64,000 nucleotides of DNA from the IMG/VR virus record IMGVR_UViG_3300032332_001787, positions 32,001 to 96,000 of that record. One strand, given 5' to 3'. The stretch comes from a virus (taxonomy: Duplodnaviria; Caudoviricetes). The first letter of the stretch is position 1. Each line of letters begins with the position of its first letter. Of this stretch, positions 2,196 through 47,974 are shown one piece after another. The notes under the pieces are model-generated. The model saw nothing but the letters and a program-made list of their open reading frames with translations. It ran no database searches and was not told where the DNA came from. Made by a program: the position numbers and the translations under genes.

Positions 2196-3335
2196 ATGAG
2201 AATAAAAGGAACCAAAGATAAAAAGAAAAGAAAAATTAAAACTATTTTGGATGGAAACCAAGAAAGAAATTTAATTGAGGATTATGAGCAAGGAGTAGCC
2301 ACTTCTGAATTAAGAAAAAAGTATAATGTGACAAAATCTTATGTTAGTAATATGTTTAAGCGCAGAAATATTAAGAAAAGAATAGATTGGTCAGTAATTG
2401 ACCAGTGGTCGGAGGTTGATGATATAGAAGCAATTGAAGAGGGGGCTCATGGGATTTATGCATTATTTTTTGTAAATATCTTAGATAGTAATAATATAAA
2501 AGTATATATTGGTAGTAGTACAAATATTAAAACTAGATTAAAGTGTCATACCAAAGATTTAAAGATAGATCAACATAAATCTACAAATTTATCAAGAATA
2601 TATAAAGACAATAATTATACTATGAGATATGCTATTATAGAAATTTGTTCTGATAAAGAAATTTTGCAGAAAGAGAGTGAATATCTGAGAAGATGGTCAG
2701 ATAGTTGTTTATTAAACAGATCGAAGCCTACCAATGAGGAAGACATGGGGCCTTGGTTGAAGGCTGTATTAAAAAATAAAGCATATAGAGAAGGATATGT
2801 AATTAATAATCAAACAGGATGTAAGGAGAGCGTTAGCGTATCTAAGAGCGGATATGGTAAAGCGAAAGTAACTCTTGGGGGATCTAATATTGGGGGCAGG
2901 GGTGTTACAAAGTATTTGCTTAAGCACCGTGTAGCTTTTTGGGAAAAAAACGGAAGTTATCCAGAATTAGTGAGACATACGTGTGGAAATAGAAAATGTT
3001 ATAATCCTGATCATTTAGAGCCTGGAAATCATAGAGACAATAATTTAGATAAACGAGGGGATTTTCCAGAAATTTTTGAGAAAGCGTGGTTGGAATTAAA
3101 TGGGGATTTGGAAAAATTAACGGAGCATTTTTCTGACCGATGGACAGCTTGTCAGATGTGGAAAGGAAAAACTGTTTCATATGCTATATATAGCTGGGAA
3201 AAGAAACTGGGTCTAAGGAAAAAGTATCCAGAGATATTAGATGCTAATAGCGACAGAAGATTCAGCTTGTCTTATCAGAAACTAAGAAGAAATAAGAAGA
3301 AGAAACAAAAAGGGCTACCGACAAAGTTTAGCTAG
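2196..3335 (+). CDS. homing-endonuclease-like protein with both GIY-YIG and HNH (His-Me finger) domains
   Basis: GIYALFF...VYIGSSTNIKTRLKCH, then HRVAFWEKNG...VRHTCGNRKCYNPDHLEPGNHRDN. Confidence 0.85.
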   Translation: MRIKGTKDKKKRKIKTILDGNQERNLIEDYEQGVATSELRKKYNVTKSYVSNMFKRRNIKKRIDWSVIDQWSEVDDIEAIEEGAHGIYALFFVNILDSNNIKVYIGSSTNIKTRLKCHTKDLKIDQHKSTNLSRIYKDNNYTMRYAIIEICSDKEILQKESEYLRRWSDSCLLNRSKPTNEEDMGPWLKAVLKNKAYREGYVINNQTGCKESVSVSKSGYGKAKVTLGGSNIGGRGVTKYLLKHRVAFWEKNGSYPELVRHTCGNRKCYNPDHLEPGNHRDNNLDKRGDFPEIFEKAWLELNGDLEKLTEHFSDRWTACQMWKGKTVSYAIYSWEKKLGLRKKYPEILDANSDRRFSLSYQKLRRNKKKKQKGLPTKFS

Positions 3336-8699: not shown

Positions 8700-10280
8700 A
8701 TGAGTTGGAATGGGTATCAGATGAGTAGGGATATGTGGGGTAACATGAAGCATGAGCATATCCATGTTGGTTGGACTGTGACGTTTGATATGGATGGTAA
8801 GCGTTACTCGTGGAATCTTAATGCAAAGTATAGAACTAAGATTGACGTTGAACGTAGGGTTTTTGAGAAGTATCCTACTGCTACTAATGTTCGTTGCAAC
8901 AAGAATATTTGTGAAGTTTGAAGGGAATAAAATGAGACAGTTAACCAAAAACGAAATAGCCGATCTAGAATTTGACGCTGAACTTATGGGCTTTCGGGTA
9001 GTGTATCTTCCCAAACCTCTTGACTGGAATCATTTTGTGTTGTATTATCTCAAGCCAGAATTGACTTATGTTGGTCACTATCGTGGTTTGAATGAGGTCA
9101 AGCTAGGTATGCAGAAGCACTACAAGCCGGAGTATAGTGAAAAATGAACGATCTACATTATGAATTTTTGTTGAAAGCGATGTATCAAAAACCTAAAAAG
9201 AAAAAGGTTCAACACGGGTCTGCTGGTCGTAACTACTACGGTGAGTTGAAAAGATTTAAAGGCTATCGTGGCCCATTAAAGAAAGATGAAGAGCAGAAAT
9301 GACTAATGAAGAAAAATGGATTGAATATCGTAAGTCTGTAGGCTTGACTGAAAAGTCTCCAGAAATTGAAGCTGGTTGGAATAAGGAATATAATTGTTCT
9401 AACCGAGTTGGTCGATTAATTTACATGAACGATTCTGATACTTACGGAGACTGAAATGAAAACGAAAAAGAAGGTATTGACAGCACACGAAAAAGCTGTT
9501 ATACTCATGAATCGTGAAGCTGGTCGTGCAGTGAATCGTGTGAAGATGTTGGAACGGTTGTATCTTGAAACTATGAAAGCAAAGGAACTTGTTAAATGAA
9601 GTGCGTTGTTACCCATACCGATACTTATGGTGGTGAAGCTAACTATGGTTGGGTGAATCGTTATGAATTCATCCCCAAGAAGAATGCTAGCCAGCGTAGC
9701 GTTATTCGTAAGGCTAAGGCTCTGGCCGGTATGACAGCAGTCAAGGCTGAGACCTATGACTATGGCGACGGCTATACCGTTAAGCCTCGCGGCTATGCTC
9801 AGATCATCTTTGTTGATTTTGAGTAAACTCTCCCTCGTCGTAAACCCTTTGTGTTCAAGCACTTAGGGCCGACGGGGCGGGCCGGGCTTGCTGTAAGTCC
9901 TTATCTACCAACACTTTACGAGAATCCTTACAATCTATTAAGATTCAAGTTACCCCCTTGCAATAGACGATAATAGATAGTAGAATACGATATAGAAGAA
10001 AGGCAAGGGTGAAGACATGAGTCCTGACGGAAGCTATAACGGTTATGTAAACTACCAGACATGGAATGTTTGCTTGTGGATTAGTAATGATGAAAATCTG
10101 TATAGTCTGGCAAAACAGTGTGGTTCTTACGAACATTTCAGGATTTTGATTCGTGAGATTTTTACCACAGCCCCTATCCGATTCGAAACGCCCGATTGTG
10201 TGGCTTGGAATGATAGTGGTATCAACATGGCCGAAATGGTAGAGTATTGGGAAGAAAATTTTTCTAAAGTTTGTGCTTGA
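8700..10280 (+). CDS. small hypothetical proteins 8700-8921, 8931-9147, 9596-9826, 10017-10280
   Basis: Codirectional ORFs inside cassettes R7-R9. Confidence 0.6.
9839..9920. repeat. 82-bp repeat R8
   Basis: CGTAAACCCTT-TGTGTTC-AAGCACTTAGG / 24 / TGTAAGTCCTT-ATCTACC-AACACTTTACG. Confidence 0.9.
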
Positions 10281-11677: not shown

Positions 11678-11857
11678 ATGAGAATTTGTCCGTGTGGGTC
11701 TGGCAAGAAAAGTTGGTGGGAAAGTGATGCTAGGGGAATTCCACTGGGTAGGGTTTGTTTGGATTGTTTGGATAAAAAGTTGAGTAAGTATAGGCCAGAA
11801 GTGTTGACCAACTCCAACTACTATGCTGACGAGCCTATTGAGGCCGAGGACTACTGA
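11678..11857 (+). CDS. SEC-C-motif-like zinc-binding small protein
   Basis: MRICPCGSGKKSWW...VCLDC; stop codon 1 bp before R10. Confidence 0.6.
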   Translation: MRICPCGSGKKSWWESDARGIPLGRVCLDCLDKKLSKYRPEVLTNSNYYADEPIEAEDY

Positions 11858-11858
11858 T

Positions 11859-11940
11859 CGTAAGTCCTTATCCTTAAAGAACTTAGGGTAAGGCGGGCCG
11901 GCCGACTTTGACGTAAGTGCTTGTGTATCATAGGGTTACA
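11859..11940. repeat. 82-bp repeat R10
   Basis: CGTAAGTCCTT-ATCCTTA-AAGAACTTAGG / 24 / CGTAAGTGCTT-GTGTATC-ATAGGGTTACA. Confidence 0.9.
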
Positions 11941-11979
11941 TCAACTCTAAAAAATTTTTGGAATTCCTATAGAAGCCTC

Positions 11980-12008
11980 TTGACAAGTGACGATAATAGA
12001 TGTATACT
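11980..12008 (+). promoter_or_regulatory. sigma70-type promoter upstream of the candidate large ncRNA
   Basis: TTGACA-17-TATACT; predicted start near 12015. Confidence 0.85.
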
Positions 12009-12016
12009 TAGCACAT

Positions 12017-12707
12017 AAGCAGATGAGGGCCGCTGGCAGAATGATATCAAAGTAGCCACGGTTAAATGGCTGTCGAGTATGGCTCAACCCTATCTGCTTT
12101 ACAATACAAAACTCGTGGGTCCATGCCTTGGACTAGGTTGGGTAACTCATTACGATAAGCATCGCATGTCGCGGCAGCGATGATGCTGACAGTGCCGGTT
12201 ACGCACTGGATAGTAGTGCTAATCTATGGGGGATCGCGTCCTCACCACGTTATAATACAATCCGGTATTATCCCTCATCGGGTAATAGAGTGAATTAACA
12301 CTGCAACAATGCGCTTGCATTTTATCCTTCATCGGGTAGAATCACTGAAACAACAGCCGGATACCGAACAATCAGTAACCGTTCCCAAGAGCCAGACCAG
12401 AGCGATCTGTTGCTAGCAGACAATCGCTTTGCAGGGAGGATTTCCGTGGACGGTTTCCACCAGTTTTTACCTTGCTCCAAGGGTTCATAATATCGGAGTA
12501 TTGGTGGGTTATAGAATCGGGGCGTAAACGATTCGCTGGTTACAAACAGGGGTCGGATAGAAACCACCAAATGACGGTCTGTGGTTGGTTAATGCGTGAT
12601 ACCGGACATTATCTGTAAAACTATCGTGGTGATAAAACAAGCACGCTCTAGCAGCGTATGGGTGCGATTCCCATATCATCATAAGTCGATCCATTAACAG
12701 CCGGTAT
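12017..12707 (+). ncRNA. candidate large structured ncRNA (~690 nt)
   Basis: Own sigma70 promoter, no + strand ORF >=60 aa, five domains closed by 5-8-bp stems, AC-rich linkers. Confidence 0.7.
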
Positions 12708-12902
12708 ACAATACAAAGGAGAAGAGATGACTAAAGAAGAATCAGACAGAAACGCAGCAATAGTTTATGTTCTTAGGGTTCTAAAAAGCCCAATGATGAT
12801 CAGGAGTCCTGCTAAAAAAGACGCATTGACTTTAGCAGAGAGGTATGGTATAACGGTGACTGATTTGATTAATGAGTATGATGAGATAACAAAGAGAATA
12901 TA

Positions 12903-14400
12903 ATGAACTGGCATTATGGTGATCCGATTTTGAATGGTCAATATCTGTGTTGTGTTAAGGATTATTCTTTCCCCTTTCCGTTGTTCTGGAGTGTGGAGAA
13001 TGGTGGTTGGGGAGATTGGTGGCATGGTTCTCTTGGAGATGAGCTTGAGTCGTGGAATCAGTTTGACAATTCGTTAGTGGTGTGCTATACTAGCTTTCAA
13101 GAAATTCCTATGCCGGAGGGTTGGTAATGATCTACTTAAATATTAATGAGATTGAACGATTGGCCGAAATTGTGGCCGAACTGGTTAAACTGAACATGTG
13201 TGTGGTTGCTGAGTTGAAGGGAACTAAGTGGAGTATTGAGGTAACTAAATAATGGAATGGATTAGTTTTTTTGAACGACAGCCAGAAGATGGTCAGGGTA
13301 TTTGGTATTATGGTGAGCATATTGGTGTGTGGGCTGGAGAGTATTCTTATTCTCCAAATGACCCTTTTAGTCCTCATCTTATATTTTGTCATGAATCTCC
13401 CGGTCTGGTTGACCGAATGGACGCTCCGTGGTGGATGGTTGATGATGGGGTAATGAACAGGCCAATCAAACCAGCAAAAGATTATCCAGCCGATTATCCT
13501 AGTTGACATAAGTCCTTGCTGCTAAAGCACTTAGCTCAAGGGCGGGCGGGCGGTTTCGTCGTAAGTCCTTGCTACTAAAGACTTTATGATTAGCAATATT
13601 TTTTCAAGATTTTCTCTTGACTTGTCGATAATAGTAGTGTAAGATACTAGCAACACGAAAGGGAAAATGATGACTGTATATGAGCTTATCAAAAAGTTAG
13701 AAGATTATCCATTGGACATGAGGGTTTTGACCCTTGGGTATGAGGGTGGGTTCAATGATGTCTCGTTGCAGACCGACGAGATTGTTTTCAATGTGAATGA
13801 TAAGGACAGGTGGTACTATGGTCCTCATGAGTCTGTGAGACATATGGATGGGGATAAGGGTGAGAAGTGCTTGATTATTGGGAGAGGAAAATGAAAACGG
13901 TAGAAAAACACGCCGAAGTACGATTTCATTTGCTCAACGGTAAAAATTTCCGAAAATGGCAAGTAAATATTATGCAAGGTAAGAAAAGGGTTGATCAATT
14001 TTATGTAGACCCGGCCGAGTACCAGTTGGAGATGAGGGGTTGCAAGCTGGTAAATAAGGTAGCTAGGGCGAAATGGGTCAATAAGAAACAGAAAAAGAAT
14101 GTTAGTGGTTGGGTGCAGTGTGAAGAGGTTATGCTTCGCAAAGATTTTTATCCCTCTTTGCCTATTGACAATCTTGAGAAGTTGTATTATAATCCCATTC
14201 GTGATGTTCACTGGCGACGAGAGAGTGATGGTGGTGAGTTTGTTTGGGATAACAGTGAGTATGACACCTTAGTTACCGATGGGCGACAGGTTCATATTCT
14301 AGAAGAACGTAACGGAAATTTTGACGGTATTTACGAGATCGACCCTAAGTATACAGAAAGTTTTGGAATTTATGATCAAAATCGAACTGAGCGTCCGTGA
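12903..14400 (+). CDS. hypothetical proteins 12903-13127, 13252-13506, 13667-13894, 13891-14400
   Basis: Codirectional ORFs; 13506 stop codon abuts R11. Confidence 0.6.
13507..13588. repeat. 82-bp repeat R11
   Basis: CATAAGTCCTT-GCTGCTA-AAGCACTTAGC / 24 / CGTAAGTCCTT-GCTACTA-AAGACTTTATG. Confidence 0.9.
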
Positions 14401-14746
14401 GTCGTTGAACATGATTGCCAACGGTTGCAGTCTTGATATGTTCGACAAGATTGTGTGTGCATTGGAAGTGGCACTGGGTGTGAACCAGCGTCGTATGGTG
14501 ACGATTACCGGAGGTCTGACTCTGGACAATCGTATCCATTCCATCAAGGCTATTCGACTCCACACCGGATGGGGTCTCAAAGAGGCCAAGGATTGGAGTG
14601 ATTATCTGGTTGGTGGCTGGCATTACGACAAGTTCGTTCCTGCCAAGTCCGGGGCCAAACAGAGCATCACTCTGAAAACGCCCGAAGCGGCAGAGGCACT
14701 GCTGCGTGATTTGGTTGGGCTGGGTTGTGAGGGTTATCTCTCATGA
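14372..14746 (+). CDS. protein containing ribosomal bL12 (L7/L12) C-terminal-like motif
   Basis: RIHSIKAIRLHTGWGLKEAKDWSD versus the bL12 pattern KIxVIKxVRxxTGLGLKEAKxxVE. Confidence 0.6.
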   Translation: MIKIELSVRESLNMIANGCSLDMFDKIVCALEVALGVNQRRMVTITGGLTLDNRIHSIKAIRLHTGWGLKEAKDWSDYLVGGWHYDKFVPAKSGAKQSITLKTPEAAEALLRDLVGLGCEGYLS

Positions 14747-20208: not shown

Positions 20209-20512
20209 TTTGTTTCTGCTAATCCTACGGATTTGGTGGTCTTGGCGATAGTCAGCACGAATCCTAAAGTTTTGGCTCTTGACAGACCGATATTGGTATG
20301 GTAGACTATTGGAACAAGAAAGGAAAATGATGAAGAACCTTCGCATCTATGATATTCTGACTGAGGATGGTAAAACTCTGGCCGAAATTACTCTGTCTAT
20401 GCAAGAGGATTTTGATTGGGCTGATGTTTTCGACAAGCTGTATGATATGACTACAGAAAATGTAGAGAGTTATTCTTATGAGGAAATTGCCGTAAACGCC
20501 GAATAAGCTGAT

Positions 20513-47322: not shown

Positions 47323-47402
47323 GCTCCCGTGCCGGTGGTTCCCGGCAGTTACTCTTATAAGGTAATCCGAAAGGGGACTTGGTTCGATTCCAAGCGGGAG
47401 TA
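47323..47402 (+). tRNA. atypical tRNA with TAT anticodon (Ile?)
   Basis: GCTCCCG/CGGGAGT acceptor; TTACT-CTTATAA-GGTAA; CTTGG-TTCGATT-CCAAG; promoter 47286-47314. Confidence 0.7.
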
Positions 47403-47611: not shown

Positions 47612-47965
47612 GGGCGATTCCTGGTATCGACAGGTAAAAAGAAATATAAATTGCATTGACTGGTTGATCGACCGGCCAGTATAAAAGTCGATTAAAAAAT
47701 GTTAATTGGCGAAGTTTCAACTCTCGCTCTCGCTGCCTAATTAGTTAGGTAATGAGTGGGGCGACATGAGCCTTATTACCAAATCATGATGACTCCGATA
47801 ATCGGATATGGAAGTCTAACCAGACATAAATAGGAATGATGATTGTACTCAATCTGACGCAGATAATTCTGATAGCTTTGTTATTTGTGTGATAACAAGT
47901 AACTAACAATGTAGAAGTTTATATAGACGTTTACACTGGACGGGGTTCGATTCCCCAATCGTCCA
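47612..47965 (+). ncRNA. ssrA: tmRNA; tag (A)GEVSTLALAA at 47708-47740
   Basis: GGGCGAT/ATCGTCC acceptor with G3-U70, A73; 5' TGGTATCGACAGG; TTCGATT T loop; tag ending LAA-stop. Confidence 0.92.
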
Positions 47966-47974
47966 CTTAATATT

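Follow-up and report, generated by a model that had tools for sequence, protein, structure and literature searches.

A region of about 700 gene-free nt in a complete 230-kb virus record, of which a stretch of 64,000 nt (the window) was analyzed, carries a strand-specific array of structured RNA genes, which is driven by a promoter and whose members evolve independently. We consider it likely that the array consists of five to six independently folding small RNA genes, transcribed polycistronically from the promoter in front of them, and that it acts as the precursor of stable tRNA-like RNAs. The same pieces, designated M1, M2, M3, M4, M4b, and M5 in the window, were found in varying combinations in approximately 100 related phage contigs, which hold at least eight RNA module families, none of them in Rfam. 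Our alignments predict a tRNA-like topology for M2, M4, and M5. The original prediction had proposed a single noncoding RNA of ~690 nt and, as an alternative, a precursor cut at the linkers; the latter appears to fit the data best, with modules being gained and lost at the linkers.

Setting of the array in the phage genome

The source virus, from freshwater lakes, carries an rIIA-like gene and is a distant member of the T4-type phages. The window contains 10 tRNA genes and 1 tmRNA gene. The tRNA genes (n = 10) are scattered across 15.3–47.4 kb, several of them alone in their own cassettes, and the phage-encoded tmRNA gene (72.7 bits, positions 47612–47968) adjoins tRNA-Ile(UAU) at 47323–47402. 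A + strand ORF at 2196–3335 combines GIY-YIG and HNH_3 homing-endonuclease domains. The promoter that had been predicted upstream of the array is present (Table 1), and a promoter of the same kind also precedes M1 in the relatives.

Two boundary elements (11858–11940 and 13507–13590), each followed by a consensus promoter, split this early region into cassettes and resemble the PeSL elements of T4-type phages. PeSL elements and the modular shuffling of T4-type hyperplastic regions have been described previously (PMC2839356, PMC4122927), and exchange of the array cassette would fit such shuffling. The array had been expected to have a cassette to itself; however, the boundary elements also enclose four small ORFs. 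The claim that the + strand is free of ORFs for 700 nt was correct only in part: short + strand ORFs of 30–48 aa are present in the array region, but none of them had a match in a Pfam search. The neighboring small ORFs gave no informative family match. Further downstream, a 141-aa ORF (14321–14746, + strand) gave a weak hit to the C-terminal domain of ribosomal protein L7/L12 that, at 21.1 bits, stayed below the cut-off of 25.9, and homologs of this ORF and of a 177-aa ORF (13867–14400) directly follow stand-alone copies of M1 in relatives.

Table 1. Positions of the array, its linkers, and its flanking elements in the window
Feature	Position	Strand	Description and basis
Cassette boundary element	11858–11940	+	Double palindrome in a composite region of terminator and promoter, PeSL-like; a second, alignable copy lies at ~13507–13590
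Sigma-70-type promoter	11980–12008	+	TTGACA-17-TATACT, 11/12 consensus matches; upstream of the array
M1	12017–12099	+	RNA of ~83 nt: closing stem, hairpin with a 17-nt loop and palindrome UGAUAUCA (12042–12049), small 3' hairpin
M1 closing stem	12017 / 12092	+	AAGCAGAT / ATCTGCTT
Linker 1	12100–12111	+	UACAAUACAAAA; motif statistics
M2	12112–12249	+	Cloverleaf-shaped RNA; covariation; covariance model scores 128 bits here
M2 acceptor-like stem	12114–12118 / 12245–12249	+	CGTGG / CCACG
Linker 2	12250–12259	+	UUAUAAUACA; the last A of the motif is 12260, the first base of M3
M3 (accessory)	12260–12362	+	Closing stem and five hairpins, two with conserved YUCAUC loops (12267–12287, 12319–12343)
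M3 closing stem	12260 / 12357	+	ATCCGG / CCGGAT
Linker 3 (degenerate)	12363–12369	+	ACCGAAC into AAUCAG; 5' flanks of M4
M4	12370–12541	+	Four-way-junction RNA: P1 12370–12375 / 12536–12541, P2 12377–12381 / 12451–12455, variable arms
M4b	12542–12597	+	Conserved flanks about a variable hairpin; always accompanies M5
M5	12598–12708	+	Long irregular stem (ATACCGG 12599–12605 / CCGGTAT 12701–12707) bearing a tRNA-like element
Last linker and downstream start	12708–12729	+	ACAAUACAA into Shine-Dalgarno AAGGAG (12716–12721) and ATG of the first small ORF (12727–12903)

Structure and conservation of the modules

The five predicted closing stems, the linkers at 12100, 12251, and 12708, the twin YUCAUC hairpins, and the T-loop-like hairpin at 12657 were all found at their predicted places. 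Comparison of the folding energy with shuffles, which had been proposed as a check, made a weak case: the energy of the whole region was unexceptional (on the + strand, z = −1.41, a value equaled or bettered by 2 of 20 shuffles; on the minus strand, z = −0.96). The z-scores of the single modules were −1.3 (M1), −1.8 (M2), −3.4 (M3), −2.1 (M4), +0.7 (M4b), and −2.1 (M5), and each module folded alone reproduced its closed shape. Because the energy of the whole region is unexceptional, the support for structure comes from covariation; compensatory changes in M1, M2, M4, and the tRNA-like core of M5 bear out the original claim of a structured RNA.

The core of M1 is nearly invariant, with 41 invariant columns of ~65 in an alignment of 60 sequences, and compensatory pairs occur in its hairpin. 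The sequence of the M1 closing stem varies between lineages, yet the pairing is always kept: duplexes formed by a copy's own flanks averaged −15.7 kcal/mol, compared with −10.7 kcal/mol for cross-pairings, and none of 5,000 permutations was as good. Among the matches listed, the center of the 17-nt loop is an 8-nt palindrome throughout ~130 distinct copies, reading UGAUAUCA in ~116 copies, UGACGUCA in 10 (six loop contexts), and UAACGUUA in 5 (three contexts). This palindrome, whose self-complementarity is kept by double changes, suggests that M1 molecules dimerize through kissing loops; alternatively, the DNA may offer a symmetric site to a protein. Elsewhere in the loop, G35 and G48 change jointly, to C and A, in several lineages. 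No consistent pairing was found for the variable M1 segment around CGAGUAUGGC. The 5' strand of the closing stem contains GAUGAGGG (12022–12029), which is complementary to CCCUCAUC (12272–12279) in the first YUCAUC hairpin of M3; this pairing was rejected because shuffled sequences gave such an 8-nt match in 175 of 200 cases and because, in relatives, the loops of M3 do not follow the changes in M1. A short motif, GCCGAGUA, is found in M1, in T4 RNAC (rnaC, L092 2909–3047, minus strand), and in an unclassified module upstream of M2 in three relatives (L060, L062, and L078), and may be a common tertiary motif or a chance recurrence.

The predicted cloverleaf of M2 has five helices, with 97% of cells paired in 38 sequences. 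The alignment contains 10 compensatory pairs, compared with 5.3 ± 1.4 in shuffles (0 of 500 as good) and at most 5 in slid controls. A sixth pair, also covarying, lengthens the acceptor-like stem CGUGG/CCACG. The D-arm position is taken by a hairpin of 4 bp with a loop of 7 nt, a long "anticodon" arm leads through an 8-bp stem to two inner hairpins, one of them hypervariable, and a 5-bp hairpin in the T-arm position lies one base off the 3' strand of the acceptor-like stem. In one subclass this last hairpin reads GGUGCGAUUCC, with a near-consensus T loop. Approximately 40% of the distinct M2 copies end in CCACG-(A/G)-CCA ahead of the spacer; the M2 of the window has no encoded CCA. Despite the cloverleaf topology, neither M2 nor M4 matched the Rfam tRNA model.

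In M4 (34 sequences), 92.9% of cells are paired, and 11 compensatory pairs were counted, with 1 of 500 shuffles as good. Its closing stem AAYCAG/CUGRUU is conserved (94.6% paired; AAUCAG 12370–12375 and CUGGUU 12536–12541 in the window), a single-sequence fold yields P1 as in the alignment, and the 3' hairpin GAAUC...GAUUC is also conserved. The stem originally proposed for this domain, GTAACC 12375 / GGTTAC 12538, is present there but lies two bases off the conserved register. The GTAACC/GGTTAC register is 81.9% paired, lacks its outer three pairs in 9–18 of the 34 sequences, and competes with the fully conserved P2 helix AAYCG/CGRUU. A GUGGA...UCCAC hairpin followed by a U-run inside M4 was considered as a terminator and discarded because the U-run is not conserved.

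M3, which folds alone as a closed unit (z = −3.37), is represented by only seven distinct homologs and is absent from many arrays. Its third hairpin shows a compensatory replacement, and its YUCAUC loops are conserved in 14 of 14 cases. No homolog differs in the closing stem of M3 or M5, so that covariation speaks neither for nor against these stems. Modules X and Y, which are absent from the window, have few homologs, in which compensatory replacements are present. M4b alone folds unremarkably (z = +0.71).

In relatives, M5 carries a true tRNA-like core that lacks the usual anticodon loop. There, the core scored 35.4–37.8 bits against the Rfam tRNA model (RF00005, threshold 29), and across 13 sequences compensatory changes were found in 6 of 7 pairs of the acceptor stem and 3 of 5 pairs of the T arm. 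The loops of the anticodon arm are 4–6 nt and its stems are longer than in a decoding tRNA, which has a 7-nt loop on a 5-bp stem; ARAGORN called no tRNA in this core. The element in the window (12626–12682) is a shorter version without a D arm, in which a T-arm-like hairpin (12657–12674) again contains the T-loop-like GGUGCGAUUCC, and it reached only 16.2 bits, against tRNA-Sec (E = 4.4).

We considered whether these sequences are decayed tRNA genes or small nonautonomous mobile elements with no function at the RNA level, the spacers being insertion targets or recombination scars. The tRNA-like features, the gain and loss of modules exactly at a short repeated motif, and the homing-endonuclease genes in the genome agree with this explanation. 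However, M1 is extremely conserved (~130 variants listed), compensatory changes occur in M2, M4, and M5, and every module is single-copy in the window's own genome. The conservation of M1 and the compensatory changes in M2, M4, and M5 indicate purifying selection on a folded RNA, and an origin by decay or mobility alone is very improbable.

Conserved G-U pairs are numerous in the M2 alignment. Together with the strand-specific spacer, they identify the + strand as the functional, folded strand. This bears on an explanation at the DNA level, in which the region would be a protein-binding array or a site of replication or recombination, or in which the palindrome TGATATCA would act as an operator. 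The palindromic 8-mer with its preserved symmetry fits the site of a dimeric protein equally well, but the G-U pairs are meaningful only in a + strand RNA, the spacer is strand-specific, and a promoter stands directly upstream of the array; we find this explanation hardly credible.

Six lake metatranscriptome runs contain small shares of the stretch, and the contigs of four of these runs were compared with the window. Contigs from libraries of three studies cover M2, M4, or M5, with M2 covered in all three. One M2 contig (12126–12247, depth 39) consists of an adapter-flanked insert of 122 nt, a second spans 12137–12248, and both, from two studies, stop no more than two bases short of position 12249, where M2 ends. 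An M4 contig covers 12433–12522, and the contig of a tRNA-like M5 variant ends at 12704, followed by adapter. No metatranscriptome contig bridged two modules of the window or represented a full-length precursor. The contigs are read as presence only, as their ends need not be true RNA ends and DNA carry-over is possible, and the uncovered M1 and M3 are uninformative; their ends near module boundaries are a weak hint of discrete RNA species.

Spacers and the exchange of modules

The modules are separated by a spacer with the extended consensus ACAAUACAA, which stands between all modules, ahead of the downstream Shine-Dalgarno sequence, and in some arrays also between the promoter and the first module. 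The core AYAATACAA occurs three times on the + strand of the window, always within the array region, and eight times on both strands, compared with 2.65 expected. In the fetched phage DNA, AATACAA is 36-fold denser in the arrays (4.43 per kb) than on the same strand of the remaining 1 Mb (0.12 per kb). The spacer is not known to be the signal of any nuclease, RNase E, RNase P, and RegB included.

Relatives were retrieved through the neighboring small proteins and three DNA patterns, yielding ~100 IMG/VR contigs of uncultured freshwater T4-like jumbo phages; modules were mapped by reading the loci and with one profile HMM per module, and further M1 copies came from a metagenome scan. By BLAST of the first loci, positions 1–253 of the array (M1 and M2) are 94–99.6% identical in most relatives and 85% in one of them (L003). 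Domain 3 is precisely absent from several relatives, with the remainder of the array 73–81% identical (BLAST). The architecture of the window is M1-M2-M3-M4-M4b-M5; other arrays read M1-M2-X-M2'-Y-M4-M4b-M5, M1-M2-M2'-M3-M4, M1-M2-M4, or M1-M2. M3, M4b together with M5, X, and Y are gained and lost exactly at linkers, M2 and M4 keep a constant relative order, and longer gaps between M2 and M4 in other arrays contain further, unclassified modules. M1, M2, and M4 are the conserved core of this phage clade, and the other modules are accessory cassettes exchanged at the spacers.

In many relatives, M1 stands alone, with its own promoter, 1–2.5 kb downstream of an array running from M2 to M4, and in at least 12 loci it lies 4–6 nt 5' of a tRNA gene. 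A small AAUCC/GGAUU hairpin followed by AUAGUCAGC forms the 3' flank of tRNA-Glu in the window (20210–20260); the same element follows the stand-alone M1 of relatives and may be a terminator or processing signal that stable RNAs have in common. Two relatives carry tRNA-like genes with long insertions, which lie either between M1 and the promoter that follows or immediately behind the array (L025, ~9000–9100 on the minus strand; L078, downstream of M4), and these insertions are possible introns or extended variable arms.

Such variation bears directly on the proposal of a single ornate RNA of ~690 nt, GOLLD/ROOL-like or of a new class, whose domains would be parts of one folded particle. The window offers one promoter and no internal terminator, helix density is high, and the phage region is rich in tRNA genes, all of which would suit one RNA. 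Against this, domain content varies among close relatives by gain and loss at linkers, M1 is a separate transcription unit or the neighbor of a tRNA gene in many of them, and Rfam gave no match at E ≤ 10. Complementarity between modules was also no better than chance (8 nt or more in 175 of 200 shuffles), and the whole-region z of −1.41 lends the proposal no weight. We regard a single folded particle as distinctly improbable.

A second explanation concerns the downstream end. The array could be a structured 5' leader that regulates or stabilizes the small-ORF mRNA in cis, as an element for processing, for stability, or for enhancing translation, with the last ACAAUACAA feeding the Shine-Dalgarno sequence. 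In the window and several other arrays, the last spacer indeed runs into AAGGAG-ATG without a terminator, and the junction also follows M4 or M2 in the shorter arrays of relatives. In many relatives, however, the array ends after M4 in a U-run followed by the next promoter, with no ORF attached, which makes the unit a pure RNA operon; moreover, M1 occurs alone or in front of tRNAs, and the downstream ORF varies between arrays. A leader function is thus quite unlikely.

The array is not cellular: across 185,579 prokaryote genomes, the M1 pattern turned up in no more than 2 contigs, both from lake MAGs. A blastn search against 50,697 cultured-phage records gave no match.

Known systems and a proposed path to stable RNAs

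Rfam returned no match for the array at the gathering score in the window, and none at E ≤ 10 in positions 11800–12900 or in the relatives, except for the tRNA-like core of M5. The covariance models of GOLLD (RF01998) and ROOL (RF03087) were likewise silent over the same range and in the relatives, so that membership in either family, as originally suggested, is not borne out. Other parts of the original reading were upheld: the locus encodes structured, strand-specific noncoding RNA under its own promoter, is built like beads on a string, and belongs to no Rfam family. Like GOLLD and ROOL, the array is phage-borne, near tRNA genes, ORF-free, and helix-dense, and self-association is also suggested for M1; unlike them, it is composed of separable 50–170-nt units with no single conserved large architecture, and its domain set varies among homologs. 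A full-text literature search found no description of this array.

Two noncoding RNAs from the tRNA gene cluster of phage T4, RNAC and RNAD, have been known for approximately fifty years without a function. A T-arm-like hairpin is found in RNAC, and RNAD terminates in ACCA. Like these 120–140-nt RNAs, the array RNAs occur in a T4-type phage and are linked to phage tRNA genes, M1 lying directly 5' of tRNA genes in relatives; the T-arm-position hairpin and (A/G)CCA ends of M2 recall the tRNA-like 3' parts of RNAC and RNAD. In contrast, the array has at least eight module families, a conserved spacer, cassette shuffling, and an early sigma-70 promoter in place of a tRNA operon. Nhmmer profiles of all modules gave no match to the T4 tRNA region, and the M2 covariance model detected only a 2.3-bit T-loop fragment in rnaC; homology to rnaC or rnaD was rejected. 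No role has yet been established for RNAC and RNAD, also termed species 1 and species 2 RNAs (PMC3014915, PMC9697503).

In YrlA-type Y RNAs, the ends enter the tRNA-like domain through the anticodon stem. M5 resembles these RNAs in carrying its tRNA-like domain on a long stem of 5' and 3' ends and in having no decoding anticodon loop, but in M5 the acceptor stem is the point of entry. Y RNAs of this type, from bacteria and phages, have been described together with Ro60/Rsr (PMC4201824). YrlA (RF02553) had no match in the array at E ≤ 10; neither TROVE (PF05731) nor DUF2828 (PF11443) was detected at E ≤ 1 in the 230-kb genome, which also lacks RtcB, a CCA-adding enzyme, and an RNA ligase. With no RF02553 match and no TROVE, DUF2828, or RtcB gene, a Y RNA/Ro60 system was rejected. 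Type III toxin–antitoxin (ToxI-like) arrays, in which short, nearly identical repeats stand in tandem beside the gene of an endoribonuclease toxin, were rejected as well, as the modules are mutually unrelated and single-copy and the neighboring ORFs have no family match. The array shares with polycistronic tRNA operons and PeSL-bounded cassettes the tandem arrangement of putative stable-RNA genes on a single precursor and the boundary promoter/terminator elements that favor exchange (PMC2839356, PMC4122927); it differs in that its units are not decoding tRNAs and its internal exchange points are 9-nt spacers.

For a polycistronic precursor of stable RNAs, we propose the following pathway. The early promoter at 11980–12008 would transcribe M1, M2, M3, M4, and M4b plus M5 as one RNA, in which each module is closed by its own terminal stem and set apart by the unstructured A/C-rich spacer (consensus ACAAUACAA). 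M2 and M4 present an acceptor-like stem with the T-arm-position hairpin stacked on it, M2 often with an encoded 3' CCA. Host tRNA-maturation enzymes would probably cut the precursor at or next to the spacers, with RNase P acting on the 5' side of the acceptor-like stems and an endonuclease and 3' trimming acting in the spacer, thereby releasing stable RNAs of 80–170 nt, much as the T4 tRNA operon yields RNAC and RNAD. M1 may then pair with itself through its palindromic loop, and the released tRNA look-alikes may act on host proteins that recognize the elbow of acceptor and T arm, for example, processing or modifying enzymes or tRNA-targeting defense toxins. The likeness to tRNA has a limit, in that the acceptor-like stems comprise 5–6 bp plus a mismatch, compared with 7 bp. 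A more speculative and, in our estimation, unlikely extension is that the array is an RNA island for counter-defense or host takeover, in which shuffled mimics of the tRNA elbow, produced by host processing, would titrate factors that bind the acceptor and T arm, with M1 as a kissing-loop homodimer.

This clade shows how extensive a repertoire of stable RNAs linked to tRNA operons can be, with strong conservation and active reshuffling, and the alignments contain enough covariation to define the structures. Three features offer testable handles: the palindrome in the M1 loop, the cloverleaf of M2 with its CCA end, and the invariant spacer. Should the RNAs prove to act as decoys or to modulate enzymes, the takeover of the host by the phage would gain an RNA layer. 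Even without a function assigned to them, the modules are ready-made new RNA families for the annotation of freshwater viromes.
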